A stretch of DNA of 64,000 bases, taken from a phage. The first letter of the stretch is position 1; every line of letters starts with the position of its first letter. The stretch lies in the NCBI GenBank assembly GCA_036253055.1, contig GCA_036253055.1_4124.1. One strand, written 5' to 3'. Shown piece by piece: positions 5,990 through 33,980 of this stretch. Below the pieces are notes generated by a model. It ran no database searches, had not been told where the DNA came from, and saw only the letters and a program-made list of their open reading frames with translations. Position numbers and translations under genes: made by a program.

Positions 5990-6018
5990 ATTATAACACA
6001 TCTGAATGCTACTGTAAA
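5990..6018 (-). promoter_or_regulatory. Sigma70-like promoter (TTTACA-N17-TATAAT)
   Basis: Hexamers read on minus strand upstream of gene 5396-5962. Confidence 0.5.
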
Positions 6019-6027
6019 GACGTAAAC

Positions 6028-6058
6028 ACAAAAAGACCCAATACGGGTCTTTATTTTG
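6028..6058 (-). terminator. Intrinsic terminator (GACCCgtattGGGTC + T-run), bidirectional
   Basis: Hairpin flanked by A5 and T-rich tracts, directly after stop at 6051. Confidence 0.6.
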
Positions 6059-9831: not shown

Positions 9832-9890
9832 TGTGTTATAACCCTTTACAATTAATATAAAGGGATTATAACACAAAGAATCGGTGGGTG

Positions 9891-10427: not shown

Positions 10428-10434
10428 ATAAACC

Positions 10435-10770
10435 TCATAATTCATACATTTTTGATTTGAACTGCATATGACCACCTATTTCACATGGATAACAATTCAT
10501 AATTTTGTTCAATAAAATCTGGTATTTTTTAATAACTTCTATATCAATTTTTATATTACTATTAAAAACTAATGATTCTTGAAATAATTCACCCTCGTCA
10601 AGTGAAGTAAAATCATTTATCTTCAACGGTATATTGTTGCATCGCAAGGAGAATGTATTTTCATCACGAATTAAAGTATAGAAATCATTATGTTTTTTAT
10701 TATAATCAAATTTCACAAGTAGTAGTTTAATATGAGTAGCGTACATTACTTTCACTAATTCAGTCTTCAT
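10435..10770 (-). CDS. Family-A short-form paralog
   Basis: Core DEGELFQESLV. Confidence 0.65.
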   Translation of the reverse strand: MKTELVKVMYATHIKLLLVKFDYNKKHNDFYTLIRDENTFSLRCNNIPLKINDFTSLDEGELFQESLVFNSNIKIDIEVIKKYQILLNKIMNCYPCEIGGHMQFKSKMYEL

Positions 10771-11122
10771 AACGGAATAAAATTCTCCTGTACTGCTCCG
10801 GTCCAGTACTCAATCTCTTCACTGGATAATTATCAAAGATTCTTTTCATTTCTTTCTGGATTAAACATAAGAAATCAAAGTTACAATCGTACTTATTATC
10901 CCATACTAAACTTTCTTGGAATAACTCATCCTCTTGCATTAGTGTAGTGTCAATTACATCTTCACGAACATAGCTATATACTTCATAGCTCTTGAAGCCA
11001 TCTTCTGATAATTCTAATTCATATGCAGCCATATCAAACATATCATCATGGTTTGTCTTCAATGATATTAAACAAGTAACTAATTTTTTAGTTGTATAGT
11101 ATGTAATACTTAATGTGTTCAT
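10760..11122 (-). CDS. Family-A short-form paralog
   Basis: Core QEDELFQESLVWD. Confidence 0.65.
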   Translation of the reverse strand: MNTLSITYYTTKKLVTCLISLKTNHDDMFDMAAYELELSEDGFKSYEVYSYVREDVIDTTLMQEDELFQESLVWDNKYDCNFDFLCLIQKEMKRIFDNYPVKRLSTGPEQYRRILFRYED

Positions 11123-11127
11123 TTGTT

Positions 11128-11730
11128 TTATACCTCAGTATAAAGCTTACAATAGCTTTCATCAAAATCACAAACACTTCTCAAGTACTGACACAGGTCA
11201 TTGAAAATATTTACATTTGATATATATACATTATCAAATTCTGTTCGTTGAAAGAATGTATGCATAGAATTTGTAATATATCGCATTGCATCTTCACGTC
11301 CCATAGTTATATCATTTGTGAACATTGCATCTTCATCAGTACTGATGTGTTCTATTTTAAATGATTTCATAAATGGAATACTCTTTCCTAGGGCATAACC
11401 ATCACCATATGATGCTTCTACTGCACCTTTAGAATAAAGGAATTGATATAAGTCCGAATCACGATTATAAAAAGTACGACATACGGAGGAACATAATTTA
11501 TTATCTATATGAAATAAAAATCTTTTAGCATTTTTGTCTAATACTATTCGCAATGCATCACTCTCTAGAAATATATCACCATCAAGCATAAATGAGAACT
11601 GTACTAATGCTTTTTCTAAATCCGCTCGTTTGTGATAAATCATTTCCTGCATATATATAATATCATTTGCTAATTTCTTAAAAAACAAATGCACATCTGC
11701 ACTACAACATTTATTTGCATTTATTGACAT
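11128..11730 (-). CDS. Hypothetical protein (200 aa), degenerate family-A core
   Basis: Core-like EDAMFTNDIT. Confidence 0.5.
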   Translation of the reverse strand: MSINANKCCSADVHLFFKKLANDIIYMQEMIYHKRADLEKALVQFSFMLDGDIFLESDALRIVLDKNAKRFLFHIDNKLCSSVCRTFYNRDSDLYQFLYSKGAVEASYGDGYALGKSIPFMKSFKIEHISTDEDAMFTNDITMGREDAMRYITNSMHTFFQRTEFDNVYISNVNIFNDLCQYLRSVCDFDESYCKLYTEV

Positions 11731-12281
11731 AATAGTTCCTTATACATATGATGTACTTTACAAATCTCATTATAGTATTTCATATCAATGTCATTTGTAT
11801 TAAAAACGGAAACAGACAATACTGCTAACTTATCAATTAAGTAATTATTATCGGCGTACTCTTTTAACTTATTGAACATATAGATGCATTTTATGCTTAA
11901 TTCATCATGCAACACACTGTTCTGAAAAATATTCTCTTCAGTATTAGGAGATAAGTAATCTTCAATTATATACGATAAACTACTATCGCAATCTTTATAG
12001 ATTGAAATTGATGGATGTAATGTGTCATACATTACACTAAACAGAACACCGTCATATGTGGATATTAAACTATTATTGGAAACAGTAGGATGATAATATT
12101 TCAGTACTGAAAACTTTGAACAATCAGTGCAGTAAAAATGATCCATCCCTCGACGACTTTCGTATGAGAATAGTTTACTTGTATATTCAATCCCTTTGGT
12201 GCGACGGATTGTTTCATGCATTTCTGCACATTGCATTAAAATTACCATACGTTCAAACGCAATATCTAAATCATCGTACAT
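11721..12281 (-). CDS. Family-A FQ-core paralog
   Basis: Core TEENIFQNSVL. Confidence 0.65.
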   Translation of the reverse strand: MYDDLDIAFERMVILMQCAEMHETIRRTKGIEYTSKLFSYESRRGMDHFYCTDCSKFSVLKYYHPTVSNNSLISTYDGVLFSVMYDTLHPSISIYKDCDSSLSYIIEDYLSPNTEENIFQNSVLHDELSIKCIYMFNKLKEYADNNYLIDKLAVLSVSVFNTNDIDMKYYNEICKVHHMYKELLCQ

Positions 12282-12462
12282 AACGGATATCCTTCTTCAG
12301 CGAATTAATATATTCCAAAATAACTTGTTCCTGATATTGGGTTCCCAAGTACATCAGGACTTTCAACTCTTTGAATTCAGTACTATATGAGTCTGTTTGC
12401 ATCATTCTAGTAGAATATATATTGAATAGTTTAGCAATGTCATTTTGGTCTATTATTTTCAT
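12271..12462 (-). CDS. Family-B paralog (dispersed copy)
   Basis: Motif YLGTQYQEQV. Confidence 0.55.
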   Translation of the reverse strand: MKIIDQNDIAKLFNIYSTRMMQTDSYSTEFKELKVLMYLGTQYQEQVILEYINSLKKDIRYVR

Positions 12463-12661
12463 ATATTCTCTTCTGGATTAGTTCCTGTAAGTGCTGAATA
12501 TAACCCTTCATTGCAACATCCTGTTTGTTAGAGCCAACGAAGAACAAGAGCTTAAAGTCATGGTAATCCATTTTTGGTTTAGTAGTGAACCATATGTCCC
12601 ACACTGCACTCACAGTTCTCATGTATTCAATTCGATTAAATGTTTTTGAATACTTCATCAA
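12440..12661 (-). CDS. Family-B-like paralog
   Basis: Motif FVGSNKQDVAM...IQKRI. Confidence 0.5.
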   Translation of the reverse strand: MMKYSKTFNRIEYMRTVSAVWDIWFTTKPKMDYHDFKLLFFVGSNKQDVAMKGYIQHLQELIQKRIYENNRPK

Positions 12662-13172
12662 TGTTAATCGCCAATAAGTTAATATACAAATTACTGTTAA
12701 ATGCTATCTGCAATTCCATATAGAACTGAATGATAGCATAGTCAGGGTCAGTACACGATAGTTGAAAACACTGTTCGTCAAATGCATTGTAATTGTACTT
12801 AGGGATGTGAATTTCACGCTTCAAATCAGGTTGACCCCACTTCATCGCATACACACCAATGTTATTGTTCTTTTTCCTTTTCTTAAATGTTAATTGTTGA
12901 ATATTTCCAGCGTTGTCTAGGAAAATAGTATTATTCGACACAGGTGCACCAATAGAAAACAATGATGTATCAATTACGTGTGTCTCACGCACCTCACACT
13001 TCTGGAATGCCCCAGTACCCTGTAATACATAATGAAAATTGTACTTCTCATTAACAACAGTACTAGGATCGATTAAACCAGTACTGCATTTTTTGAGTAC
13101 TGGTACAATGGTGCGAATCTTTTTTGATAAATCTTGTAATGCATCAAAGTCATTGATGTTAACTTTCATCAC
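12636..13172 (-). CDS. Family-A FQ-core paralog
   Basis: Core FDEQCFQLSCT. Confidence 0.6.
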   Translation of the reverse strand: MMKVNINDFDALQDLSKKIRTIVPVLKKCSTGLIDPSTVVNEKYNFHYVLQGTGAFQKCEVRETHVIDTSLFSIGAPVSNNTIFLDNAGNIQQLTFKKRKKNNNIGVYAMKWGQPDLKREIHIPKYNYNAFDEQCFQLSCTDPDYAIIQFYMELQIAFNSNLYINLLAINIDEVFKNI

Positions 13173-13618
13173 TCGAATGTAGCCTCTTCAGTAGTAACAA
13201 AATTGGTTAGTGTATCCAGTTCAGCAGTGTCAAGATAAAATACATCTAGTACAGATTTCTGATATATTACACTGAATGTGCATAGATTGTCAAGTGTCCC
13301 TTGTTCATAAACAGTACTACCCTGGAAGTACCCTTCTTCAGTACTCAGGGATAAAATATCTGAAATTTTAAAAGATTCTTCAGTTGCATGTCTTTCTATA
13401 TTAACTATATTGCCGTTTCGGTTCAATGAAATATAATCGTATGCTAACTCAATTAGACTATAATTATCCGCATTAGTGTCAAATAAAGCGACAATTTTTC
13501 GTCTCAATCTCTCATCGTGATCATGGTTTTCATCAGCTAAGTATTCAGGATTTTCTTTGAAGAATTTAACGACGCGTAGAATATCATTTGCTTTCTTGAT
13601 TGCACTTTCGTAACTCAT
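13169..13618 (-). CDS. Family-A FQ-core paralog
   Basis: Core TEEGYFQGSTV; N-term MSYESAIKKA. Confidence 0.65.
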   Translation of the reverse strand: MSYESAIKKANDILRVVKFFKENPEYLADENHDHDERLRRKIVALFDTNADNYSLIELAYDYISLNRNGNIVNIERHATEESFKISDILSLSTEEGYFQGSTVYEQGTLDNLCTFSVIYQKSVLDVFYLDTAELDTLTNFVTTEEATFE

Positions 13619-13923
13619 AATAATTCAACCACTCCATCTCTAAAGTACATATAACTACCACCATTGGATACTGTGAATTCTATTGTCCCCAATAATATAT
13701 TATATTTTTTTATTTCACATGTAGTACTTGTAGTGTAAGGCTCACCATCTCCTAAGTACATTGACATATGACATAGAACTTTTCTACCAGCATATTTCTC
13801 TTCAAACGATTGTTCAAAACTATGCATAATTTGATTTAAAGCTGAAATGTAATTAATAAAGTCAGGTATTTCTGTCAATGAATTATAAACCGTACAAAGT
13901 GAATCAAATTCATTTTTAGTCAT
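13615..13923 (-). CDS. Hypothetical protein (102 aa)
   Basis: Track ORF, ATGA overlaps. Confidence 0.5.
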   Translation of the reverse strand: MTKNEFDSLCTVYNSLTEIPDFINYISALNQIMHSFEQSFEEKYAGRKVLCHMSMYLGDGEPYTTSTTCEIKKYNILLGTIEFTVSNGGSYMYFRDGVVELL

Positions 13924-14237
13924 TATATTTCTATCTCAATGTAATCCTGTGTGATTAAGTAATTCCAATGATACTTCACCTGCTTTTGTAATTCAATTAA
14001 CGTAAAGAAGTTGATCGATTTATCCCACACGAGCGATTCCTGGAAAATAAATGATTCATGTTCATCGTAATAATCACACTCTAAAAAATCAGGTATATAT
14101 TCACTATCGTGAATGTATTCAACAAATGAACTAGCTTGGCATTTCTTTACTACTAGTAATAATGAATTATCATGATCAAACAGATACAATAAACTAATTT
14201 CACCAGGGACGTACTGAACACTGAATAAGTTTTTCAT
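13923..14237 (-). CDS. Family-A short-form paralog
   Basis: Core HESFIFQESLVWD. Confidence 0.65.
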   Translation of the reverse strand: MKNLFSVQYVPGEISLLYLFDHDNSLLLVVKKCQASSFVEYIHDSEYIPDFLECDYYDEHESFIFQESLVWDKSINFFTLIELQKQVKYHWNYLITQDYIEIEI

Positions 14238-14686
14238 TCTATACCTTCTGGATCTTTACGAAGTTCTTCGAAATCCAAATAAAATCGAGGACAGTTAACA
14301 CTCTTTAAGTACCACATAATAACTAATGCTTCAAGTACTTCATCATCGTAAACAGTACTGTTTTGGAAGTAATACTCTTCACTATCCCACGGACCTTCCA
14401 GTACTTCATAATTCAAAATTAATGGTTTTTTGCGATTAATAAAACGAATGCTACCATTTTCAACATAACTAATAAATTCTGCATCTCTATTGTATTCAGA
14501 AAACGATATAGGACTATTGGAATTCAACCCAAGAATAACCCTTACACCAACGGAGTTATTATACATTTCATCCTTGTAGTAGTTGCCGTTCTCGGCTTTG
14601 TACACTTCTTTGAACTTTCCTGCCTTTATATCGTCAAAGTATCCATGTAGTTCTTTTGCTTTTTCAAGAGCACTTTGTAATGACAT
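14234..14686 (-). CDS. Family-A FQ-core paralog (MSLQSAL subgroup)
   Basis: Core SEEYYFQNSTV; N-term MSLQSALEKAKE. Confidence 0.7.
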   Translation of the reverse strand: MSLQSALEKAKELHGYFDDIKAGKFKEVYKAENGNYYKDEMYNNSVGVRVILGLNSNSPISFSEYNRDAEFISYVENGSIRFINRKKPLILNYEVLEGPWDSEEYYFQNSTVYDDEVLEALVIMWYLKSVNCPRFYLDFEELRKDPEGIE

Positions 14687-15152
14687 TACCTTCTCCTACA
14701 GTATTCTCTACATATTCATAATCAAAATAGAAACTACTGGAGTCAATACTTTTGAAATACCACATAATTACAATAACATCTAATTCTTCTTCATTGTACA
14801 ACGTACTATTCTGGAAGTAATATTCTTCACTATCCCACGGTCCTTCCAGTACTGAATAAGGAATGATAGTGTCATCAGCATCACTATCTGTGTTGTAGAT
14901 GGTAATATCTTCATTACGACAATAACTAATGTACTGATTGTACATATGATATTCACAGTTATCACTGTCACCAGTATCAGTGTGCAGTACTAATGTTTCT
15001 GCACATATCTCGGACTCGTCATAATCGTCACGGTCTTTTACAAAAAATTCAGTATCAGATGTTTTATATACACCTGGTACTGAACCTTCCTGTACCATAA
15101 TCATGTACTCATGAATCTTCTTTGCTTCTTTCAATGCACTTTGTAATGACAT
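14664..15152 (-). CDS. Family-A FQ-core paralog (MSLQSAL subgroup)
   Basis: Core SEEYYFQNSTL. Confidence 0.7.
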   Translation of the reverse strand: MSLQSALKEAKKIHEYMIMVQEGSVPGVYKTSDTEFFVKDRDDYDESEICAETLVLHTDTGDSDNCEYHMYNQYISYCRNEDITIYNTDSDADDTIIPYSVLEGPWDSEEYYFQNSTLYNEEELDVIVIMWYFKSIDSSSFYFDYEYVENTVGEGNVITKCS

Positions 15153-15595
15153 TACAAATCCCCTGTACTTAAATATTCACATGCTCCCCAGTCAAGAAAG
15201 AATGGTTCAAAATTCAATTCCTTAAAGTACCACAACACAACCAAGGAATCAAGAATTTCTTGGTTAAAAATGAGACTCTGTTGGAAGTAATACTCTTCAG
15301 TACCCCACGGGCCATCAAGTACCCCGAAGTCAACAGGTGTATTTGTTGTGTCAAAAGTAATCTTAGTACCTGGAATATATACAAAAAAATTAGTATATTG
15401 ACTACATGAAGAGTACTGTATAGTATTGTCTTTATCCTGTCCCATAAGTAAAATATCATCAGAGTATGTCTTTATACCTGATAGATAATACTCATCACCA
15501 AATGCACTTACTTTATCACCATAGAACCCACTTTTTATGTTATCGTGGAAGTGATGTATTCTGTGTGCTAGTTCAAGTGCACTTGCTAAACTCAT
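15152..15595 (-). CDS. Family-A FQ-core paralog (MSLQSAL subgroup)
   Basis: Core TEEYYFQQSLI. Confidence 0.7.
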   Translation of the reverse strand: MSLASALELAHRIHHFHDNIKSGFYGDKVSAFGDEYYLSGIKTYSDDILLMGQDKDNTIQYSSCSQYTNFFVYIPGTKITFDTTNTPVDFGVLDGPWGTEEYYFQQSLIFNQEILDSLVVLWYFKELNFEPFFLDWGACEYLSTGDL

Positions 15596-16062
15596 ATATC
15601 CTCTTTAATAACTCGTAGTAGATCCAAGTCCAAATAGAAGCTAGGACAATCTGTATTATTAAAGTACCACAGAATGACAAGCTTGTCAAGTACATCTTCC
15701 TCGTAGATAGTATTCTGCTGGAAGTAGTACTCTTCACTTCCCCAGTCATTATCCAGTACTGAATACGGAAGATGTTTCTCTGCTGCACCAGATATAATGT
15801 CAGAATCTTGTATTAAAATATCAGCATCACGACAGAAGTACATGTAATTATCTTCCAAATTAACATCACACCCATTGAGTGTTGTTTCAGAAGAATCTAA
15901 GTTTTCTTCATACATGTGAATGTACTCACTACTGTCATCGTATCTCATTCGACAATATGATTTACCTTCCTTGAATAGATATCCATTAAGACAATTTGCT
16001 ACAATTTCTTTGCTGCATAAATCAATTAACTTCGCAATCTCTAATGCTCTTTCTAAACTCAT
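15592..16062 (-). CDS. Family-A FQ-core paralog (MSLQSAL subgroup)
   Basis: Core SEEYYFQQNTI. Confidence 0.7.
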   Translation of the reverse strand: MSLERALEIAKLIDLCSKEIVANCLNGYLFKEGKSYCRMRYDDSSEYIHMYEENLDSSETTLNGCDVNLEDNYMYFCRDADILIQDSDIISGAAEKHLPYSVLDNDWGSEEYYFQQNTIYEEDVLDKLVILWYFNNTDCPSFYLDLDLLRVIKEDI

Positions 16063-16063
16063 T

Positions 16064-16555
16064 TCAACCCCTGTTAATACCGTTATCTACAGTTTTCTTT
16101 ACGTATTTGTAATCGAAATAGAAGTTCCCAGAACCAATACTTTTAAAGTACCACATAATTATAATAACATCAAGTACTTCATTATCATATACAGTACTTT
16201 GTTGGAAGTAATACTCTTCACTATCCCACGGACCTTCCAGTACTTCACTCGGAATTATAATGTCATTGGAATCGCTGTCAGTACTGTTGATGGTATCTGT
16301 ATCATTAATATAGACCATGTACTCATTATGCATATTAATGAAGCATTCATAATCATTAGGGTCGGTATCTAGTATGCACGTTTCTGTATCCAGTACGCAC
16401 GTTTCTGTATCTGAGCAGTCATTATAAAGGAGGTTATCCGGTACATAATATTGAGTACTTGTGTCTTTGAAAACACCGTAAACTGAACCTTCTTTTGCCA
16501 TATTCATGTACTCATGAATCTTCTTTGCTTTTTCCAATGAACTCTGTAATGTCAT
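16064..16555 (-). CDS. Family-A FQ-core paralog (MSLQSAL subgroup)
   Basis: Core SEEYYFQQSTV. Confidence 0.7.
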   Translation of the reverse strand: MTLQSSLEKAKKIHEYMNMAKEGSVYGVFKDTSTQYYVPDNLLYNDCSDTETCVLDTETCILDTDPNDYECFINMHNEYMVYINDTDTINSTDSDSNDIIIPSEVLEGPWDSEEYYFQQSTVYDNEVLDVIIIMWYFKSIGSGNFYFDYKYVKKTVDNGINRG

Positions 16556-16564
16556 TTTATAATC

Positions 16565-16924
16565 TCATATATTGAAATAATAATTATTCGTTCTTGATGG
16601 GGATGGATTAAATACGTTTTCTTTTTCAAATCTCTTCATTTCATTTTGCAAAGAAACCATTTCTTCAAATGTACAGGAGTACTTATTCTTATCAAACACT
16701 AATGCAGCCTGAAATAGTTCACCATCGTCCAGTACTGTATAATCTATAAGACTCTCAGATTCATAGTCATAGTCGTCATGTGATACATGAATAAATTTAA
16801 AACAAGAATCTTTGTAATGCATATATAAACTCAACTCATGTTCCGAGTCGCCCTTAATAAGATTACAGCACAAGTCCCATCCTTTAGGTAACTTATAATA
16901 GTACATAGAATAATCATATGTCAT
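16565..16924 (-). CDS. Family-A short-form paralog
   Basis: Core DDGELFQAALVFD. Confidence 0.65.
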   Translation of the reverse strand: MTYDYSMYYYKLPKGWDLCCNLIKGDSEHELSLYMHYKDSCFKFIHVSHDDYDYESESLIDYTVLDDGELFQAALVFDKNKYSCTFEEMVSLQNEMKRFEKENVFNPSPSRTNNYYFNI

Positions 16925-17277
16925 TCTTGAATTCCTAAATTGAATTTGTATTCTTGATTAATACTTGCATTGGGTTTATGCAAAGCAGCATACTCTTTCA
17001 TTTCATTTTGTATTGCAATAACTTCTTCAAATGTACACAAGTACTTCTTATCAAATACTAATGATTCTTGGAATAGTTCTGCGGTATCCATTAATGTATA
17101 GTCCGGCATATCTTGGTGTGGATACTGTAATGAACTGTAATCAATGAATGTAAATTTACCCTGAGTGTAATGAATATACTCATTTGCACTGTGCATTAAA
17201 TCACCTTTGTTTAAATTACAAAAGTACTGATAACTGTGCTTGAAAGTATGTACTGATATTAAAAAATCAAATTCCAT
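16921..17277 (-). CDS. Family-A short-form paralog
   Basis: Core DTAELFQESLVFD. Confidence 0.65.
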   Translation of the reverse strand: MEFDFLISVHTFKHSYQYFCNLNKGDLMHSANEYIHYTQGKFTFIDYSSLQYPHQDMPDYTLMDTAELFQESLVFDKKYLCTFEEVIAIQNEMKEYAALHKPNASINQEYKFNLGIQE

Positions 17278-17648
17278 CAGTACTCAACCTCTACATAAAT
17301 AGATTCAGGAAACTTAGTCATATAATCTTCTGGATAGTTCTGCATTACTTTGATCATTTCTGCCTGTGTAGCACGGACGTATTCAATTGGTGCTCCTGGT
17401 AAATTCCAGACAGTACTTTCCTGAAAGAATTCCTCTTCTGACAGTACTGTCAGATTTACAAAATCATTACGGTAATTTTTTGAATCATCATATGTGAAGA
17501 TTTTAAAAGACCCATTTTCATATAGTACAAGAACAAAATGGGAGAATTTTTGTAATGCACCACCAAGGCTTTCCACGACCGCATGATTCAGTGTACAGAT
17601 GACCTCTCTTTTCCTCATACCGAATTGAATTCTAATTTCTTTTTTCAT
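17277..17648 (-). CDS. Family-A short-form paralog
   Basis: Core SEEEFFQESTVWN; SD GAAGGAG. Confidence 0.65.
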   Translation of the reverse strand: MKKEIRIQFGMRKREVICTLNHAVVESLGGALQKFSHFVLVLYENGSFKIFTYDDSKNYRNDFVNLTVLSEEEFFQESTVWNLPGAPIEYVRATQAEMIKVMQNYPEDYMTKFPESIYVEVEY

Positions 17649-17806
17649 AAAATCTCCTTCAGATTAGTACTGAATTTGTACAGAATATTAGAACTGTATA
17701 CAGCCTCTGTATCTGTATCCATAATCAAATCACCTTTGTTTAAATTACAAAAGTACTGATAACTGTGCTTAAAAGAATGTACTGATATTAAAAAATCAAA
17801 TTCCAT
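17645..17806 (-). pseudogene. Truncated duplicate of the 5' end of gene 16921-17277
   Basis: 80-nt direct repeat (17198-17277 vs 17726-17805, 2 mismatches); ORF keeps first ~27 aa (MEFDFLISVH...) then diverges, 53 aa. Confidence 0.5.
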
Positions 17807-18183
17807 CACACTTCCCCTAGATTGAAATGATTACAAAAATCATCTTCACCAGTACTGCACCAGATATCTATACATTCCCTGTGAATACATTTAATTCTAC
17901 GCTGTAATTCAATCATCTCTTCTAATGTACAGATGTACTTCTTATCAAATACTAATGCCGCCTGAAACAGTGCAGCATCATCAAGTACTGTATAGTCCAA
18001 CATCTCGGTTGCTTTACCCCTAAACCCAGTACTAAAATCCATCAAATAAAAGTCAGCATTCCAGTACTTTAAAATCTTGTCCCTAGCGTAGTTTAAATCA
18101 CCCTTGTATAAGTTAGAGTGCGTAACTAACTCACCAGTGTACATCCATGTCCTTGCACAAAATTCATTATATTTTATTTCCAT
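17806..18183 (-). CDS. Family-A short-form paralog
   Basis: Core DDAALFQAALVFD; start moved to ATG 18183 (MEIKYNEF). Confidence 0.55.
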   Translation of the reverse strand: MEIKYNEFCARTWMYTGELVTHSNLYKGDLNYARDKILKYWNADFYLMDFSTGFRGKATEMLDYTVLDDAALFQAALVFDKKYICTLEEMIELQRRIKCIHRECIDIWCSTGEDDFCNHFNLGEV

Positions 18184-18381
18184 CTTAATCTCTACTATAA
18201 TTAATAAGGTAAACTCCAATATAAGGAGCACGTTCGGCGGCGGGGTATTTTTTGTTTAAGGAAACATGAACTGTACTCTGAAAAACACAATATAAAACTT
18301 TATATTAAACATATACCTTAGCATGTTTTTCAGCGGAAATTTTTTTGACCCCCCCCTGCGGCCTGTCAAAATGAAACGTCT

Positions 18382-18618
18382 CTATTTATTCAGCCTAGAA
18401 ACCTTGATTTCTTCAATCCTTTTCAACGCACAAAGCTTGCGACTCGTATTCCTGTACATATTCATTACACGCTGTAATGCATTGTCCTGATATTCCCTCA
18501 CTGTTGCACGCTCAGGATTGTGTACTAAACACGAACTCTTCAAAATCGAATCCATCATGAATTCAAAACCTTTCATCGTATATGGACTCATTGTTTCTGG
18601 TTCTTCAAACGTAATCAT
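18382..18618 (-). CDS. Hypothetical protein (78 aa)
   Basis: Track ORF. Confidence 0.45.
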   Translation of the reverse strand: MITFEEPETMSPYTMKGFEFMMDSILKSSCLVHNPERATVREYQDNALQRVMNMYRNTSRKLCALKRIEEIKVSRLNK

Positions 18619-18835
18619 TATACCAATCCCCTATTCCCTCTAACCTTCTAAGATATCTTGCGTAAATTATTTCGAAATATCGATGCAACGAAATTACGGA
18701 TTGTTCATAATCATCATTCCTGTACATTGTGCATGTAAGAAAATCATTTAAACCGTAATCTAAACTGCACTTAAACTTCTCCTTTGCAATATCACTATTA
18801 CTTGCACTTTTCATAATAAACCCTTTGTACCGCAT
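18605..18835 (-). CDS. Hypothetical protein, family-A C-terminal-like (possible split gene)
   Basis: Degenerate core DDYEQSVISL; upstream out-of-frame ORF 18798-18968. Confidence 0.4.
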   Translation of the reverse strand: MRYKGFIMKSASNSDIAKEKFKCSLDYGLNDFLTCTMYRNDDYEQSVISLHRYFEIIYARYLRRLEGIGDWYNDYV

Positions 18836-18968
18836 TGGTGTACTGTGAACTCAGCACCACCAATAGGTAATCAATATTGTAAGCACGATTTCCTCGTTGA
18901 CAGGCACGACTGGAATAAAGAATATTATCCACATATGTATTGAACTGATCTTCAAATAACTCTTTCAT
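18798..18968 (-). CDS. Small ORF (56 aa), possible N-terminal half of a frameshifted family member
   Basis: Not in track; ATG-initiated, overlaps 18605-18835 in another frame. Confidence 0.3.
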   Translation of the reverse strand: MKELFEDQFNTYVDNILYSSRACQRGNRAYNIDYLLVVLSSQYTNAVQRVYYEKCK

Positions 18969-18989
18969 TAGCATCATCCCATCACAAAA

Positions 18990-19532
18990 TCATACATTAA
19001 CAACTTTATCGATGTAATCTTCTAACATATCAATATATCTGGTATTGGTTCTAACTAAAAGGTATGCAAATCCAGAAAACTCCTGTGTATAATGCTTTAC
19101 AGCGTACATACAACGAAGCTTATCATTGTCATACATTGTACTGTACTGAAACAAACTCTCGTCTGATAGCTCTAATAACGCTTGGGCTTCACTTCTCGTG
19201 AACTTCATAGGGTCATGTACTGCATCACAAAAACAAACCTGTGTCTCGCTATTGAAACCCTGTGATAGATATATACCTTCACACTCGGAACGCACCGATA
19301 CGGCATTATAACTATGTGTTGCCCCCATCATATCTGAACTCAAAACTAAAATCAACCCATTTTTATTTTTAATCAACAAATCTGACTTAAGGGATTTGAT
19401 CTCCGTATGGGAAATATCACCAAATCTTCCGGGAACCTCAAACTTATCAACGTTGTATACAATCTTTTGTACTTGCTCTTTTAAACGCTTAATTGCACTT
19501 CTGTCTTTTTCTAATGTATCTAATAAACTCAT
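18990..19532 (-). CDS. Family-A FQ-core paralog
   Basis: Core SDESLFQYSTM; start moved to ATG 19532 (MSLLDTLEK). Confidence 0.55.
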   Translation of the reverse strand: MSLLDTLEKDRSAIKRLKEQVQKIVYNVDKFEVPGRFGDISHTEIKSLKSDLLIKNKNGLILVLSSDMMGATHSYNAVSVRSECEGIYLSQGFNSETQVCFCDAVHDPMKFTRSEAQALLELSDESLFQYSTMYDNDKLRCMYAVKHYTQEFSGFAYLLVRTNTRYIDMLEDYIDKVVNV

Positions 19533-19542
19533 TGTACTTTCC

Positions 19543-19884
19543 TTACATATTTGTATCGAACAATACGGAACTGCGAACGTCATTGATCGACAATTCATGT
19601 ACATATATATTTTGTCTGAACAAAGGAACTAATTGAACTAAACTTTGTTGCATAATAATATGCATATGTACATTGTCATATGCCGTTTCGTATTGGAAAC
19701 GTGCTGCTTCATCTTCTATGAAATTAGGAACTTGGACTGGATTTTCAAAATTTGTTCTTGAACTGAACTGCACATCATTGTCCTGTACTTTAATACCATA
19801 TGCATTATCATCATCATATACATCTAATTCAATTAAACTACCATCACTTTTTATGTTTACCACACAAACCGAAAATCGACTCAT
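19543..19884 (-). CDS. Family-A-like short paralog
   Basis: Core DEAARFQYETA. Confidence 0.55.
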   Translation of the reverse strand: MSRFSVCVVNIKSDGSLIELDVYDDDNAYGIKVQDNDVQFSSRTNFENPVQVPNFIEDEAARFQYETAYDNVHMHIIMQQSLVQLVPLFRQNIYVHELSINDVRSSVLFDTNM

Positions 19885-20396
19885 AAACCTATTTCCTCTA
19901 AATCTTTGACAAATGTATCATAATCCGATAATGACAAAAATATGTCTGTACTGATGTTCTGACGTAATGTATTAAACAAATTATGTACCTGTAATAAATC
20001 AGGTGAATAAATCAGGGATTGCTGGAAATACGATTCTTCTGTATCTAATATATCCCTGCACTCAATTTCACGAACTCGTTGGTATATTGAATTTAATAAT
20101 ACATTTTCATCTTTGAGCATTGGAAGGTATCGGATGTACATGTTCTCCATCAACTCATCTTGGATTGAACCCCTGAACTGCAACACGTATTCAAAACACA
20201 TCACTACATCTTGTAGGTAATTGGCACTGTACTGATTACTATACACGATTTTATGACAACTGAACTCGGAATCATTTCTGAACCAATTGTTACCCTCTTT
20301 CCTGTACTTATGACTAAGCTTCCCATCCTCCAACGCTCGAATAAACTTCATAATGTTAATTGCAAAATCATATGAATGATGCTTGTGTTGATGCAT
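19881..20396 (-). CDS. Family-A FQ-core paralog
   Basis: Core TEESYFQQSLI. Confidence 0.65.
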   Translation of the reverse strand: MHQHKHHSYDFAINIMKFIRALEDGKLSHKYRKEGNNWFRNDSEFSCHKIVYSNQYSANYLQDVVMCFEYVLQFRGSIQDELMENMYIRYLPMLKDENVLLNSIYQRVREIECRDILDTEESYFQQSLIYSPDLLQVHNLFNTLRQNISTDIFLSLSDYDTFVKDLEEIGL

Positions 20397-20404
20397 TTTT
20401 TACC

Positions 20405-20599
20405 TCAATTCTGTCCGAAAAAATAACCAAAATGTTTAAAGCAAGAAAGCATTACTATGTTCATCACTCTATCATCAAATTCATCTTGTGTTTCTGCACA
20501 TAATGTTCCACTGATATTCATATGTAATAATTCAAGCTGGAAACTATCGGTGAACCAATCAAACTTACGGTATTTTTGTTTAATATCAATTATAAGCAT
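20405..20599 (-). CDS. Hypothetical protein (64 aa)
   Basis: Track ORF. Confidence 0.4.
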   Translation of the reverse strand: MLIIDIKQKYRKFDWFTDSFQLELLHMNISGTLCAETQDEFDDRVMNIVMLSCFKHFGYFFGQN

Positions 20600-20600
20600 A

Positions 20601-30077: not shown

Positions 30078-30336
30078 TCCTAGTACACCTTAGTGGGCGG
30101 GTCATTTGATGAAAGTACAGCTTACCTCTGATTTCCATTAGTAATTCATTTAATACGAGTTGTACCTCTTGTTCTTGATAGTTAGTTCCTAGCATAGCAC
30201 CCATTATCAACTCACGTATCATAATCATCTTCTTGTCGTGTTTGATTTCTTCGCTGTAATAGATTTCGGTGCGTTTAGTTGAGATTTTTGCACGTCGCTC
30301 GTTATATTCATCTTTACTTAAATTGATCATTTTCAT
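30070..30336 (-). CDS. Family-B paralog
   Basis: Motif MLGTNYQEQEV; start moved to internal ATG (MKMINLSKDEY). Confidence 0.55.
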   Translation of the reverse strand: MKMINLSKDEYNERRAKISTKRTEIYYSEEIKHDKKMIMIRELIMGAMLGTNYQEQEVQLVLNELLMEIRGKLYFHQMTRPLRCTRND

Positions 30337-30337
30337 G

Positions 30338-30568
30338 TTAATTACCCTTACATTTATTTTCAATACTATTCATGAGTTCTTTAAGATAGTTTTTTACCTT
30401 ACCTGCCTGATAGTTCGTCCCTAGAAAGTTGCACAACTCTGCTTCTATGATTTTGATTTTCCTGATATCAGGCTTCAATCTTTTGTTATTGAATATTTGA
30501 ATCCTTATATCTCTGGATGCATTTAAACGTTTTTGATATTCATGGTAAGTTAAATTAATCATTTTCAT
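30338..30568 (-). CDS. Family-B paralog
   Basis: Motif FLGTNYQAGKVKNYL. Confidence 0.6.
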   Translation of the reverse strand: MKMINLTYHEYQKRLNASRDIRIQIFNNKRLKPDIRKIKIIEAELCNFLGTNYQAGKVKNYLKELMNSIENKCKGN

Positions 30569-30783
30569 TTACGTTTAACCTCTCGCTGGAGGGAATCAAT
30601 TAACATCAGTACCGCATTCTCTTGATAGTTTGTTCCTAAGACTGAAAGCATCTTTATCTCATTTACTAAAATCAACTTCTTTGAGGGTTCAATAATGTGA
30701 CTATCATAAACGGCCTTACGTGCTGGATAAGTTTTCGCCAGTATAACATAAAATTCGTCTTTACTTAAATTAATCATTTGCAT
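30565..30783 (-). CDS. Family-B paralog
   Basis: Motif VLGTNYQENAVLMLI. Confidence 0.6.
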   Translation of the reverse strand: MQMINLSKDEFYVILAKTYPARKAVYDSHIIEPSKKLILVNEIKMLSVLGTNYQENAVLMLIDSLQREVKRK

Positions 30784-31031
30784 TTACTTTTAACCTCTTT
30801 CTGTAGTGCATCGATCCATAGGTCTACATAAGTGTGTTGATAGTTTGTGCCTAAGAGTGTTAAGACATAAAGTTCAGTTATCATTATATACTTTCGTTCT
30901 TCGGCAATTTTTTTATCCTTTTGAATCATTCTCCTTCTGATTCCACAGGTTTGTAGAAGCTTAACATATTCGAAACCTATTAATTTTCTCATTTTAAACT
31001 CACCGACTTCAGACGTAAGCTGCTTAACCAT
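30774..31031 (-). CDS. Family-B paralog
   Basis: Motif LLGTNYQHTYVDLWI; true start may be internal ATG near 30992. Confidence 0.55.
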   Translation of the reverse strand: MVKQLTSEVGEFKMRKLIGFEYVKLLQTCGIRRRMIQKDKKIAEERKYIMITELYVLTLLGTNYQHTYVDLWIDALQKEVKSKCK

Positions 31032-31249
31032 GCGTCTATGTAGATACTTTGATAGTTTGTCCCAATGAAGAGTAATAGCTTCATTTCAGCTATTATAACA
31101 CATCGGTCCGCTTCTGCAATAGAATTATCTAAAAAAGTCCACGAGACTTTTCCTTGTATAGTTCTTAACCTATTGTAATACTCATGCTCAGTCAGGATTT
31201 TCATTCTCACGTCTCCATATCTCGGTTCTAATGTGTTGGCAGTGTGCAT
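30989..31249 (-). CDS. Family-B paralog
   Basis: Motif FIGTNYQSIYIDAWL; true start may be internal ATG near 31204. Confidence 0.55.
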   Translation of the reverse strand: MHTANTLEPRYGDVRMKILTEHEYYNRLRTIQGKVSWTFLDNSIAEADRCVIIAEMKLLLFIGTNYQSIYIDAWLSSLRLKSVSLK

Positions 31250-31451
31250 CGATGAACATATCTATAGATTTGGTAATTGCTGTTTTATCAGTGCCTGTCA
31301 TCAGTACAAGCATCTCTGCCTCACTATGAATTAAACGCATGATATCATAGGGTAATATTTCAGATACTGTATCATAGTGTTTTTGTCCTAGATTCTGTAA
31401 TAGTTTAAAATACATTTTGTGATTTAGTCTTTGTTGCATTGTCTCTTCCAT
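31188..31451 (-). CDS. Family-B-like paralog (degenerate)
   Basis: Motif MTGTDKTAITKSIDM; start ambiguous. Confidence 0.5.
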   Translation of the reverse strand: MEETMQQRLNHKMYFKLLQNLGQKHYDTVSEILPYDIMRLIHSEAEMLVLMTGTDKTAITKSIDMFIDAHCQHIRTEIWRRENENPD

Positions 31452-31696
31452 TCTCTTTGGGCTTGGCGGGTTTTATCTGATATTTCGTTTCTCAGTGCAG
31501 AGATATATCGTTGAGTGAACAGTTCTTGATAGTTTGTTCCAATGAATTTCATAAGATAAACATCACCGTTGATAACATCCAATTCAGGTGCACCATGTAA
31601 TGCATAGTTTTTTCTAAGGGTGTTAAGAAGAGAGAAGAGGGCAGTCTGATACTCAGTGCTTGATAAAGTCTTCATATTTTTCCACAATTCGTTCAT
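31424..31696 (-). CDS. Family-B paralog
   Basis: Motif FIGTNYQELFTQRYI; start ambiguous. Confidence 0.55.
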   Translation of the reverse strand: MNELWKNMKTLSSTEYQTALFSLLNTLRKNYALHGAPELDVINGDVYLMKFIGTNYQELFTQRYISALRNEISDKTRQAQREWKRQCNKD

Positions 31697-31910
31697 TTAG
31701 TTTTATCTGTATAAGATCCATTAGTTGTTCAAGATAATCGGTACAATATTTCTCTTGATATTGGGTTCCCACAAAGTACAGCAACCATAGCTCATGAACT
31801 TTAACTTTCATCTCGTTCCATGAAAGTTCACCGTCATCGTAGATTAGTCTTGCTTCTGGGGTGAGCTTTCGAATTCTAAGTGAATATTCATCGTTCGTCA
31901 AGTGTTTCAT
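31653..31910 (-). CDS. Family-B paralog
   Basis: Motif FVGTQYQEKYCTDYL. Confidence 0.6.
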   Translation of the reverse strand: MKHLTNDEYSLRIRKLTPEARLIYDDGELSWNEMKVKVHELWLLYFVGTQYQEKYCTDYLEQLMDLIQIKLNERIVEKYEDFIKH

Positions 31911-32065
31911 TTACATTTATCCCTTATTAGATTTGTGAGTGCAACTATGTGTTCATGGACATAAAAATTCTGATGAGAAGTTCCAAGAAAGTACAGCATC
32001 CATCCCTCACTCTGCTCGACTTTTAGTTTAGTATCGAGTTGGTCAGATATGTTAATGAAAACCAT
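31907..32065 (-). CDS. Family-B paralog (52 aa, below track cutoff)
   Basis: Not in track; ORF MVFINISDQL...YFLGTSHQNFYVHEHIVALTNLIRDKCK; stop/start overlaps with neighbours. Confidence 0.5.
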   Translation of the reverse strand: MVFINISDQLDTKLKVEQSEGWMLYFLGTSHQNFYVHEHIVALTNLIRDKCK

Positions 32066-32289
32066 TAGTTCTTTTCCTTTCTTTCTATTTGTTTCATAAG
32101 AACATTGATATACTCACCCGCAAACCTATTCTGATACTGCGTCCCCATGAATTCCAACATCCATACTTCAGCAACCTTTTCTTCAATTTCAGTCCATTGT
32201 AAGTACATCATAGTGAAGTAAATGGTGTTCTCTTTTTTTCTGGCACTCTTAGCACGGGCCTCGTATTCAAAGTTATTAATGATGTTCAT
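32065..32289 (-). CDS. Family-B paralog
   Basis: Motif FMGTQYQNRFAGEYI. Confidence 0.6.
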   Translation of the reverse strand: MNIINNFEYEARAKSARKKENTIYFTMMYLQWTEIEEKVAEVWMLEFMGTQYQNRFAGEYINVLMKQIERKEKN

Positions 32290-32503
32290 TACATTTGTCC
32301 ATTATGTAATTAGTGAGTGCAACGATGTGCTCATGAACATAGCCTTCTTGGAAGTTAGTCCCCAGTACAGCCAACATGCGAATCTCGGTGGTGTTTATCC
32401 TGTGTTCCCTTATAGATAAACATTCTTTTTGTGGAAGTGTAAAATATTTGTTTATTACAGCAATGATAATTTTATTCTTCTCTATATTACTTAAATGTTT
32501 CAT
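32276..32503 (-). CDS. Family-B paralog
   Basis: Motif VLGTNFQEGYVHEHI. Confidence 0.6.
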   Translation of the reverse strand: MKHLSNIEKNKIIIAVINKYFTLPQKECLSIREHRINTTEIRMLAVLGTNFQEGYVHEHIVALTNYIMDKCNEHH

Positions 32504-32715
32504 AGTTTGCTCCTGACGTATTTCTCAAGAGATGACAAATACTTTTCCTCATAATACTCCTGATAGTCTGTTCCCAAGAATGCACCCAAAAGTATTTCAT
32601 TTTCCAATACCTCGGCTAAGTTTAAATCAGAAGTCTCTTCGTATATTATGAGGATTTCAAGTTGTCTGGCAGCGATGCGTTCAGTATATTGATATGATTT
32701 TTCTAGAATAATCAT
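32500..32715 (-). CDS. Family-B paralog
   Basis: Motif FLGTDYQEYYEEKYL. Confidence 0.6.
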   Translation of the reverse strand: MIILEKSYQYTERIAARQLEILIIYEETSDLNLAEVLENEILLGAFLGTDYQEYYEEKYLSSLEKYVRSKL

Positions 32716-32924
32716 AGTTTACTCTTAATGTGGTTCTGAAGTGCAATAAAGTATTCTCCTACATAATACTCCTGAAAGTCTGTATCCAAAAATGCACCCA
32801 TAAGTAAATCCTTCTCCATTACCCTTGATAAGTTAAGATCTGCATTTGAAAGGTATATAAGTAATATTTCAGCCTGGACAGATTTAAAACGTTTCTTATA
32901 TTCTTCAGGTGTTAATATAATCAT
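32712..32924 (-). CDS. Family-B paralog
   Basis: Motif FLDTDFQEYYVGEYF. Confidence 0.6.
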   Translation of the reverse strand: MIILTPEEYKKRFKSVQAEILLIYLSNADLNLSRVMEKDLLMGAFLDTDFQEYYVGEYFIALQNHIKSKL

Positions 32925-33130
32925 AGTTTACTCTTAATATCTTCTATTAAAAATCGAATCCAATCTTGAACATACTCTTCCTGATGGTTTGTGTTCAGTA
33001 CAGCCAACATACGGATCTCTGCTCTTGCAACTTCAATTTCAGTTTTAGGAAGGTCTTTGCTGATATCCACCATTAAGTCCATGTATTTCAAGATAAGACC
33101 GTATGATTGGGTTCGTGTTATAGTTTTCAT
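32921..33130 (-). CDS. Family-B paralog
   Basis: Motif VLNTNHQEEYVQDWI. Confidence 0.6.
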   Translation of the reverse strand: MKTITRTQSYGLILKYMDLMVDISKDLPKTEIEVARAEIRMLAVLNTNHQEEYVQDWIRFLIEDIKSKL

Positions 33131-33327
33131 TGTTTCCTCGTGGACAAAATTTCATTTTTCAATGTATCCACATATTTCGTTACCCATGCATCCTGATAGT
33201 TAGTTCCCAATGTAATCAAAAGGTATAACTCCATTCGTTCTACGTGTGAGTCTGTATTATAAATCTTTGTGAAGTTTTTACGTAACAGTGCTTGATATTC
33301 TTTTTCGGTTAATTTACGCATTTTCAT
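33127..33327 (-). CDS. Family-B paralog
   Basis: Motif TLGTNYQDAWVTKYV. Confidence 0.6.
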   Translation of the reverse strand: MKMRKLTEKEYQALLRKNFTKIYNTDSHVERMELYLLITLGTNYQDAWVTKYVDTLKNEILSTRKQ

Positions 33328-33521
33328 AGTTTACTCGTTACATCTTCAATTAAATACCAAATCCAATCCTTGACATACCTTTCCTGATAGTTAGTCCCAA
33401 TGAATAGTGCCATAATTAATTCACGCTTATAGGCAATACCACGGTCATGTGACTTATACATTATCATAGCCATGTTATTGATAAGTCTTTCGTGGTGTTC
33501 TGCTTGAGTTAAAATACGCAT
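33324..33521 (-). CDS. Family-B paralog (first gene of array)
   Basis: Motif FIGTNYQERYVKDWI; start moved to ATG 33521 (SD AAGGGAG); promoter just upstream. Confidence 0.6.
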   Translation of the reverse strand: MRILTQAEHHERLINNMAMIMYKSHDRGIAYKRELIMALFIGTNYQERYVKDWIWYLIEDVTSKL

Positions 33522-33551: not shown

Positions 33552-33579
33552 ATAATATATGAATTGTATAAAAAGTCAA
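33552..33579 (-). promoter_or_regulatory. Sigma70-like promoter (TTGACT-N16-TATTAT) heading the family-B array
   Basis: Hexamers on minus strand ~25 nt upstream of SD/ATG at 33521. Confidence 0.5.
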
Positions 33580-33599
33580 TAACATTTTATTCGTAATAC

Positions 33600-33770
33600 C
33601 CCTTTATCGAAGTCGCTAAGGTTACCCGCCCTTTAGCCCCCTACGCATTTTGCCATAGTCCAATCCCTTTTATTTTAAAAAAGTCAAGGGATTACCTATG
33701 CATTTTTTTAACGCATTATTTTAAAAACGCCTTGACTTTTTTCTGAATCAGTACTAGATCCCTTTACGCA
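33600..33770. promoter_or_regulatory. Intergenic control region with 13-bp inverted repeat and repeated ACGCATT motifs
   Basis: AAAAAAGTCAAGG ...(~40 nt)... CCTTGACTTTTTT; ACGCATT-like motif four times. Confidence 0.4.
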
Positions 33771-33980
33771 TTAATCCTTCGTTACGCTAACGATTATCTG
33801 TGTATCCCCGTAGTCCTGCCATACTTCCACGCCATCCGTCGCCCTGGTTAGTCGTGCTGTCATCTGCTTAACAGTCTTAGGCTTTAGTGGAACCTGTTGC
33901 AGTACTGTACGCATAGCATCACTGACGTTATCATGTACGCCAGCAATAGTACCTAGAACGCTGTATACTGTATAGAACAT
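33771..33980 (-). CDS. Hypothetical protein (69 aa)
   Basis: SD AGGAGGG before ATG; perfect hairpin AGGCCGCTctctAGCGGCCT upstream. Confidence 0.55.
   Translation of the reverse strand: MFYTVYSVLGTIAGVHDNVSDAMRTVLQQVPLKPKTVKQMTARLTRATDGVEVWQDYGDTQIIVSVTKD

Follow-up and report, generated by a model that had tools for sequence, protein, structure and literature searches.

What is the role of the non-coding stretch at positions 33600-33770 of a 64,000-nt piece of phage DNA (NCBI GenBank assembly GCA_036253055.1, contig GCA_036253055.1_4124.1; this whole piece is hereafter called the window), where a module of small genes meets an array of 26 tandem paralogs? An earlier note on this DNA had described a 13-bp inverted repeat and four ACGCATT-like repeats at this place and had proposed that they act as an operator or a bidirectional terminator governing expression of the array. 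The note had overlooked the nature of this boundary, which is the inner end of a direct terminal repeat (DTR), i.e., a physical end of the virion chromosome. We consider it probable, with moderate rather than high confidence, that this terminal-repeat junction of a 121Q-like Asteriusvirus, a jumbo coliphage, carries a conserved terminus-generation (packaging) element.

The boundary coincides with the inner end of the terminal repeat

The window comes from an Asteriusvirus, with 97.9% identity to Escherichia phage 121Q over 1.8 kb. When the ends of linear GenBank records were aligned to it, seven records (CRJP21, vB_Ec-M-J, G17, E9.1, fEgEco12, BF17, and WPEC3) were found to end exactly at position 33619, and position 53789 corresponded both to the end of the G17 record and to position 1 of fEgEco12 (80 of 80 nucleotides identical in the alignment to the window). 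Because of the seven record ends at 33619 and the left end of fEgEco12 at 53789, the DTR was assigned to 33619-53789 on the minus strand, a segment of 20,171 bp that is present as a single copy in this collapsed assembly. Phage orientation is the minus strand, with the left physical end at 53789 and the right physical end at 33619. In this orientation the right terminus, the junction between the DTR and unique DNA (33618..33619), reads ...GGGTAACCT/TAGCGAC... (here and below a slash within a motif marks the cut), 152 nt beyond the stop codon of a homolog of 121Q gp318.

Termini of relatives have been determined by experiment or from reads. The repeats of fEgEco12 measure 20,993 bp according to PhageTerm and were confirmed with restriction digests (PMC13070987), G17 has redundancies of ~20 kb as judged from coverage (PMC6563267), the repeats of BF17 and Sharanji are ~20.5 kb (PMC10059673) and 20,668 bp (PMC11895373) long, the DTR of fENko-Kae01 was placed at 1..19736 by PhageTerm (PMC11218385), and the repeat end of CBB was determined from read depth (PMC5259590). 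The position homologous to 33619 is thus one at which linear records with experimentally or read-determined termini end. In addition, the vB_Ec-M-J record annotates 'Direct Terminal Repeats' at 1..21525, and the end of this repeat maps into the junction examined here. The stretch in question therefore straddles the inner end of the DTR, and with it the right physical end of the virion DNA; what had been called the small-gene module is the terminal repeat itself, and the array is the first unique operon. Since DTRs and their ends are already public for these relatives, the nature of the boundary as such is no new finding.

The last gene of the DTR (33771..33980, minus strand; stop codon at 33771) encodes a 69-aa protein of the 121Q gp318 family (phrog_17833). 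Homologs of gp318 are also the last DTR genes of fENko-Kae01 and CBB and occupy the equivalent position in GAP32, XbC2, Serratia BF, Yen9-04, and Hallingskeid. The AlphaFold2 (AF2) model of this protein has a pLDDT (predicted local distance difference test) score of 95.4; it had no fold match in PDB (best E = 0.32), its BFVD matches were uncharacterised homologs only, and the protein scored below the cut-off for Pfam DUF7217.

A junction element shared by several genera

The gp318-family gene was found in 69 phage records by tblastn, and the sequences downstream of it were compared in CBB, GAP32, XbC2 (Mimasvirus), Serratia BF, Yen9-04 (Eneladusvirus), Hallingskeid (Erwinia), and EJP2, with five metagenomic contigs joined to the cross-genus alignment. 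The same junction architecture is seen in fENko-Kae01, a Klebsiella phage of a different genus cluster, whose last repeat gene shares 38% identity with gp318 (E = 4e-14) and is followed by a tail of 145 nt with AAGTCAA..TTGACTT, GATTGGACTATG, and a flanking direct repeat of differing sequence, before the repeat ends at GCCT/TAGCC. The compared tails align as one element with three conserved parts, namely AAATGnRTAGGTAATcCCTTGACTTTT, GGACTATGCAAAAtTTTTTGCTTAGTAAAGGCCAGTAAYGCT/TAGC, and, ~20 nt beyond the cut, GGTATTAC.

In the window, the in-repeat part of this element is the 152-nt non-coding DTR tail (33619..33770, minus strand), which contains two conserved boxes on the same strand. Box A, AAATGCATAGGTAATCCCTTGACTTTT (33679..33705), holds the second arm of the inverted repeat (33677-33689) and an ATGCAT repeat (33698-33703), whereas box B, TTGGACTATGGCAAAATGCGTAGGGGGCTAAAGGGCGGGTAACCT (33619..33663), ends at the cut and includes the fourth of the ACGCATT repeats (33643-33649). 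Outside the DTR, the sequence conserved on the minus strand (33593..33618) comprises TAGC(G) at 33615-33618 and GGTATTAC at 33593-33600. Box A is recognisable in CBB, GAP32, XbC2, EJP2, fENko, Hallingskeid, Serratia BF, and Yen9-04, and in box B the motifs GGACTATG, TAAAGG, and GTAAYNCT are conserved between genera. Beyond Asteriusvirus, the element follows the gp318-family gene in at least five lineages.

An nhmmer profile built from seven non-Asteriusvirus tails (of Klebsiella, Erwinia, Pectobacterium, Cronobacter, Xanthomonas, Serratia, and Yersinia phages) gave a single match when both strands of the window (128 kb) were searched, and this match lay at the junction (33764-33593, minus strand, E = 4.8e-16). 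Five further metagenomic loci were matched with E values from 1e-21 to 1e-36. The 95-nt core of the element is 61-68% identical to its counterparts in other genera, above both the adjacent coding gene (57-61%) and random 99-mers of the window (51 +/- 3%).

The ends of Asteriusvirus, fENko-Kae01 (by PhageTerm), CBB (by read depth, ACGCT/TAGCG), Hallingskeid (record end), and an unrelated NCBI contig (contig end) share one alignment column directly before TAGY. The cut consensus ...GTAAYNCT/TAGY is thus a fixed position with conserved sequence on both sides, as is typical of pac/cos-type sites, and the element covers roughly positions -145 to +30 counted from the cut. With the exception of RaK2, the same flanking gene and the same junction sequence are found at DTR ends in other genera. 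The position of the terminus as well as the homology and conservation of the element can be regarded as established, and these comparisons point to a cis-acting DNA element of ~180 bp, made up of the tail and the post-cut sequence, that appears to have been inherited across several genera of Rak2-like jumbo phages.

Variation of the element within Asteriusvirus

The alignment of nine Asteriusvirus versions separates three types: type A (window, 121Q, CRJP21, PBECO4, and the Salmonella SD phages), type B (vB_Ec-M-J, TH47, Turkey3, CMSTMSU, and three metagenome contigs), and type C (Turkey5 and JNE01; ~72% identical). The inverted repeat is present in types A and B. Differences between these two are concentrated upstream of the first arm, within the 5' half of the loop, and in and after the U tract; the arms show one change, and none was seen in box A, in the 3' half of the loop, or over the last 57 nt. 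In type C the inverted-repeat region is replaced; AATGCGTAAARGGATYTAGTACTGA behind the stop codon is kept, together with AGGGATTGGACTATG, ATGCGTRGGGG, GGGTAACCT/TAGC, and the promoter TATTGACTTTTTATA. Throughout Asteriusvirus, type C included, AGGGATTGGACTATG, ATGCGTRGGGG, and GGGTAACCTTAGC are invariant. Turkey5 also carries an 80-nt tandem duplication that spans the end of its gp318 homolog and the first half of the tail.

Further sampling added little new diversity: the single metagenome scan returned three identical type-B copies, and scans of IMG/VR returned chance matches and 121Q only with a 14-nt pattern and 121Q only with a 30-nt degenerate pattern.

The inverted repeat and the AYGCATT copies

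Both sequence features of the earlier note proved to be real. The inverted repeat, said to span about 40 nt, consists of AAAAAAGTCAAGG at 33677-33689 and CCTTGACTTTTTT at 33730-33742, which are complementary at 13 of 13 positions and separated by a spacer of 40 nt. The 64-kb window holds just two perfect inverted repeats with arms of 13 nt or more and a loop of 3-60 nt, compared with 0.3 +/- 0.75 expected in first-order Markov sequences, and the second of these (53106/53169) is made of the hyper-abundant AGTACT palindrome. The chance that 219 nt of sequence with the local composition carry one or more such repeats is ~8e-4. The informative core is GTCAAGG/CCTTGAC (here the slash separates the arms), and six positions of each arm are A/T runs. 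The four ACGCATT-like repeats comprise three exact ACGCATT copies (33643, 33711, and 33766) and one ATGCATT (33698); together these AYGCATT copies span 33643..33772 on the minus strand and read AATGCRT on the sense strand. Four AYGCAT copies within 153 nt form the densest cluster in the window (corrected P ~0.016), with a spacing of 55/13/55 nt that is nearly centred on the inverted repeat. All three exact copies of TTGACTTTTT in the window are confined to 33570-33741.

The two arms differ in their conservation. The second arm in phage orientation (33689 to 33677) falls inside the conserved box GGTAATCCCTTGACTTTT, whereas the first (33730..33742, minus strand, read from 33742 to 33730 as AAAAAAGTCAAGG) is specific to Asteriusvirus types A and B and is not conserved at the same column in other genera. 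Other lineages have a looser inverted box (AAGTCAGA / AGGTCAAAAAA / AATTCAAAAAA, i.e., AAGTCA(A/G)A) ~20 nt further upstream and often a second direct copy of TTGACTTTT, and their flanking direct repeat also differs, e.g., ATTTTTACCTwAGT in two copies in fENko-Kae01. The inverted repeat consists of a TTGAC box that is deeply conserved and an inverted copy of this box that is specific to the lineage.

Both features might also be functionless by-products of local duplication in an A/T-rich spacer. The region is prone to duplication, as seen in Turkey5, the number of 13-nt inverted repeats expected by chance over the window (0.3 per 64 kb) is not negligible, and copy 2 of ACGCATT has been lost in type B. 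However, an element with one arm and one repeat copy is conserved across genera, and from type A to type B the arms stay the same (apart from a single change in the full count), whereas positions in the flanking spacer vary. We regard such an origin as highly improbable.

AGTACT, often within CAGTACTG, is by far the commonest hexamer of the window, with 256 copies in 64 kb, one of them at 33750-33755; CAGTACTG with at most one mismatch occurs 212 times, against 21 +/- 4.8 expected. The copies lie in coding and non-coding DNA, are densest in 36000-56000, and are missing from the 4-kb bin 20001-24000, and their flanks show no logo beyond C-1/G+1. A role of AGTACT as a promoter spacer element was rejected, since only ~10 of the 256 copies stand in the register TTGACA-N8-CAGTACTG-TATAAT and the copy at 33750 is not among them. 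Divergent sigma70 promoters in the arms were likewise dismissed (neither TTGACT has an acceptable -10 element at 16-18 nt), as was a G-quadruplex in the G-rich terminal block, whose G tracts are not conserved in 121Q or type C.

The boundary promoter and the array

As the earlier note had stated, the region separates two gene modules and lies upstream of the promoter of the 26-gene array. This boundary promoter (33552..33592, minus strand), whose agreement with the sigma70 consensus is established, consists of an A/T-rich upstream stretch, a -35 element TTGACT (33574-33579), a 16-nt spacer, and a -10 element TATTAT (33552-33557). TTGACT-16-TATTAT matches the consensus at 10 of 12 positions and is located 40 nt outside the chromosome end. 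All three Asteriusvirus types (A, B, and C) and EJP2 have kept it, and fENko-Kae01 has TTGACA-17-TATACT at the equivalent place, 27 nt outside its repeat end; in CBB-like phages, no sigma70 promoter was found after the junction. In PBECO4 and BF17 a different gene of 121 aa is inserted directly after the boundary promoter, and the promoter is retained although another gene follows. Because this insertion keeps the promoter, the promoter is tied to the junction and not to the array gene, and the insertion marks the junction as a hot spot for gene insertion. The inserted gene in PBECO4 carries its own downstream promoter, TTGACA-17-TATGAT.

The proposal of an operator finds no support in this geometry. 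The nearer arm of the inverted repeat (33677) lies 98 bp upstream of the -35 element (33579), the half-sites are 53 bp apart from centre to centre, and no regulator is known.

The array itself (27900..33521, minus strand) comprises 26 tandem paralogs of ~70 aa with an LGTNYQ motif (phrog_4148). Its first gene (33324-33521, minus strand) starts at the ATG at 33521, preceded by the Shine-Dalgarno sequence AAGGGAG (33527-33533); the start at 33551 given by the open reading frame (ORF) caller falls within the -10 element, and the 121Q annotation agrees with the ATG at 33521. Promoter-like sites inside the array were not more frequent than expected by chance (50 found, 47 +/- 7 expected).

Four Salmonella phages from one study (e.g., SD-15_S21) lack ~75 nt equivalent to window 33525-33600. 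The gap begins 19 nt past the cut and reaches the first array gene, so that the boundary promoter is gone and AAAAGG is the sole remaining ribosome-binding site (RBS). Either a genuine deletion or an artefact of assembly at the edge of the repeat may be responsible. The array family also has members outside the 26-gene run, at 25697-25482 and 25512-25246, and an LGTNYQE motif forms the N-terminus of a 269-aa protein (26801-25992).

Transcription termination and RNA structure

The bidirectional part of the proposed terminator finds no support: all genes for many kb around the junction are on the minus strand, so there is no convergent transcription to stop. A one-way role is conceivable in 121Q-like phages, in which the inverted repeat would serve as a non-canonical rho-independent terminator or 3'-end stabiliser that insulates the array from DTR transcription. 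A stable stem followed by a U tract on the transcribed strand is indeed found after the gene. In the sense RNA, the predicted 81-nt fold is a stem of 13 bp that encloses a hairpin of 7 bp (-19.9 kcal/mol, z = -4.25) and is directly followed by U6, and the extended sense fold reaches -32.6 kcal/mol compared with -17.2 for the antisense. The hairpin is placed 29 nt past the stop codon and ~100 nt ahead of the next promoter, and the 12 perfect TTGACA-16-TATAAT promoters of the DTR would impose a high read-through pressure. Between types A and B the arms differ by 1 substitution and the 5' half of the loop by 5. There is also a sub-threshold structural likeness to a terminator-containing leader, Rfam RF03530 (bglG-cis-reg; 30 bits, E = 0.0013-0.0026, below the gathering threshold of 80 bits), and the junction element belongs to no Rfam family.

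Nevertheless, this hairpin is not called by a terminator consensus scan because its loop measures 40 nt instead of the compact 3-10 nt, and compact canonical terminators are used elsewhere in the DTR. The U tract is weakened to UUUUAU in type B, the helix is replaced in type C, and in CBB-like phages the gene after the junction, having no sigma70 promoter there, probably needs read-through. Among 15 homologous elements, 53.8% of the cells of the 13-bp helix were paired, compared with 53.9% in shuffles, with no covariation, and RNAalifold returned 0 consensus pairs. The idea of a conserved hairpin is therefore not supported, given its absence in type C and the lack of both covariation and RNAalifold pairs, and we consider a terminator or stabiliser an unlikely explanation, albeit one that is compatible with an end-formation site at the same place. 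An extended 130-nt nested hairpin that pairs the outer ATGCGT copies was also rejected; it is sense-specific, but its pairs are broken by type-B substitutions and it is not conserved.

Control at the RNA level could take another form, in which the tail (33684-33712) of read-through transcripts pairs with the RBS and start of the first array gene (33508-33535) and thereby blocks translation or creates a processing site, whereas array transcripts initiated at the promoter would escape. The two segments show 84% complementarity over 25 nt, pair in the minimum-free-energy fold of the 311-nt read-through RNA, and form a duplex of -32.8 kcal/mol compared with -19.9 +/- 3.1 for shuffled partners (0 of 500 as good). 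For type A the z score of the pairing is -4.3, and a single metagenomic sequence of type B reaches -3.8, but the pairing is weaker and involves a different partner in other type B phages (z ~-2.4), is weak in PBECO4 and the Salmonella phages, and is absent in type C (z ~-0.4). It is largely a by-product of the quasi-palindromic ATGCRT motif that is present at both places, and the accessibility of the start region shifts only from 0.46 to 0.27. There is, in our view, scarcely any likelihood that such pairing explains the element.

What is conserved is sequence rather than pairing, and it is conserved on both sides of the cut. This pattern fits a DNA site that is recognized on uncut concatemers, and DNA boxes recognized by protein are therefore favored over an RNA hairpin.

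A possible role in end formation or packaging

In phage orientation, the stop codon of the last repeat gene (33771) is followed by the 152-nt non-coding tail, the physical chromosome end after ...GGGTAACCT (33619), ~30 nt that are conserved outside the repeat (TAGC ... GGTATTAC), and the sigma70-type promoter (33579-33552) from which the operon of the 26-gene array would start. The element would be recognized when concatemeric DNA is cut or nicked to give the right genome end, and would thus be a pac/cos-like site. Boxes of the TTGACTTTT type, GGACTATG, and TAAAGG..GTAAYNCT/TAGY may represent the determinants of protein recognition and cleavage, with /TAGY marking the scissile position. We infer from the conservation pattern that the element directs cutting or packaging and that its boxes bind a protein.

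Several points weigh against this interpretation. The terminus of the phage in the window was transferred by homology from relatives, and some GenBank records may have been re-oriented to earlier ones, so that the independence of all of them is uncertain. Type C phages (JNE01 and Turkey5) have no box A, though box B and the cut motif are kept, and the gp318 homolog of RaK2 is followed directly by another gene with no tail. The neighboring gp318 protein yields no functional clue in the Pfam, PDB, and BFVD comparisons, and neither a terminase small subunit nor another binding protein is known from this group (BF17 paper, PMC10059673). A conserved regulatory role or another DNA transaction would leave the same pattern of conservation. 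Finally, the two DTR boundary regions have no extended similarity (their best local alignment is below the shuffle mean) and the profile yields no match near 53789; therefore, one element cannot explain both cuts.

How the two ends might be related is suggested by their outer flanks, which at both DTR boundaries are inverted copies of RCTA/.../TAGY, in the window (CCACTA/AGTAGG... on the left, 53790-53795, and ...AACCT/TAGCGA on the right, 33618-33613) as well as in fENko-Kae01 (CCGCTA/TATC... on the left and ...GCCT/TAGCCA on the right). According to the Watson or T7-type model, staggered nicks and strand-displacement synthesis duplicate a terminal repeat. By analogy, the inverted motifs, RCTA on the top strand at the left boundary and TAGY at the right, could mark staggered nicks on opposite strands, from which displacement synthesis would duplicate the 20-kb repeat, on a scale two orders of magnitude above the T7-type case. 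The motif has only 4 nt and is known from two phages, and this nick geometry is tentative. We would give a rather low probability, well short of even, to the broader proposal that the ~180-bp element sets the right end in Rak2-like jumbo phages generally and that the inverted motifs mark such nicks leading to displacement synthesis.

DNA entry, or a DNA transaction other than packaging, could also be served by the element, either as a T5-like stop or pause of injection or as a site of repeat recombination or circularisation. In T5, the terminal repeat of 10 kb has at its inner end a conserved untranslated region with many repeats and inverted repeats, which extends beyond the terminal repeat into unique DNA and has been proposed as an injection stop signal (bioRxiv 10.1101/866236). 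The junction in the window is similar in that a conserved non-coding element lies across the inner end of a repeat that is densely filled with host-type early promoters. However, the element has ~180 bp compared with 1.2 kb in T5, no DnaA box (TTWTNCACA) occurs in 33540-33790 (there is one site with 1 mismatch, inside the promoter spacer), and two-step injection is not reported for jumbo phages of this group in their DTR papers. In addition, the element contains the mapped cut at a constant place, a feature that a mere entry signal could do without. We therefore regard an entry or recombination site as quite improbable and retain end formation or packaging as the favored role of the junction element.

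The regeneration of very long exact terminal repeats (10-66 kb) is poorly understood. DTR papers on this group (PMC13070987, PMC6563267, PMC5259590, PMC11895373, PMC10059673, and PMC11218385) report only the existence and length of the repeats; they describe no packaging or end-formation signal for Rak2, 121Q, or CBB jumbo phages and do not describe the junction element, the cut motif, or the boundary promoter, which is no proof that these are undescribed. The words 'promoter' and 'terminator' are absent from the fEgEco12 and Sharanji texts. The junction element offers a concrete DNA substrate for terminase or nicking assays, and it provides a rule for locating true ends in collapsed or permuted assemblies, i.e., ...TAAAGGnnnGTAAYnCT/TAGY after a gp318-family gene. 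It may also be a starting point for engineering or in-vitro packaging of phages that are candidates for therapy. For annotation, the module boundary is now explained by chromosome-end architecture and not by a regulatory switch for the array.

Other features of the terminal repeat

The DTR (33619-53789, minus strand) contains 12 perfect (12/12) TTGACA-16/17-TATAAT promoters and ~10 TTGCAA-16-TATAAT sites, all in gene direction. Many near-perfect sites on the sense strand add to these, and in its transcriptional equipment the repeat contrasts sharply with the array. An intergenic element of ~100 nt is present four times on the minus strand (35330-35470, 37256-37396, 40118-40258, and 44142-44282) and includes a 12-bp hairpin, AAAGGGATTGAC-TCCG-GTCAGTCCCTTT, in which a TTGACT -35 element is embedded, with TATTAT behind it. 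Two compensatory changes of base pairs (GGGA/TCCC to GTGG/CCAT) set the copy at 44236 apart, suggesting that the hairpin is under selection.

The left chromosome end (53764-53789) opens with a hairpin-capable palindrome, AGTAGGCAGA-GGAAG-TCTGCCGTACT, and the left end of fENko-Kae01 (positions 251-275 of the sequence compared) has a palindrome of unlike sequence, TATCTTCT-CTGTATA-AGAAGATA; the outside flank of the left end is CCRCTA in both. Around the left repeat end at 53789 there is an ORF-free region of ~1.9 kb (52112-54044), with an array of 8-bp period at 52888-53039 (CGTCTAGC / CGTTTAGC / CGTCCAAA), many TTCAGTACTGAA palindromes, and GATTAC-type repeats. This region could hold a left-end packaging signal or an origin.

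Comparison with known systems

The closest parallels come from relatives of the phage in the window. In G17, BF17, Sharanji, fEgEco12, vB_Ec-M-J, fENko-Kae01, and CBB, the DTR ends occupy the same position, aligning to 33619/53789 or to the homologous column, and the repeats are alike in length (~20-22 kb).

Among well-studied phages, exact ends are made at lambda cos with cosB R3/R2/R1, at SPP1 pacL/pacC/pacR, and at the concatemer-junction pac sites of T7 and T3. Like these, the junction site is a composite of ~150-200 bp with several short boxes (one of them inverted) beside a fixed cut, spans the cut, and is conserved among relatives. In contrast to them, it is a putative site, and it shares no sequence similarity with them; the repeat to be regenerated is also much longer, 20 kb compared with 160 bp in T7 and cohesive ends of 12 nt in lambda. 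With Repeat Region 3 of T5 it has in common that an untranslated conserved element with an inverted repeat straddles the inner end of a long repeat filled with early genes, but it is far shorter, has no paired DnaA boxes of the T5 type, and contains the terminus within the element. Rho-independent terminators are resembled in the A-tract, the stem, and the U-tract on the transcribed strand past a stop codon, whereas the 40-nt substructured loop, the failure of the consensus scan to call it, and the lack of conservation of the helix set the element apart from them. Taken as a whole, the junction element is probably, though by no means certainly, a site that serves end formation or packaging in a phage whose terminal repeats are exact, rather than an operator.

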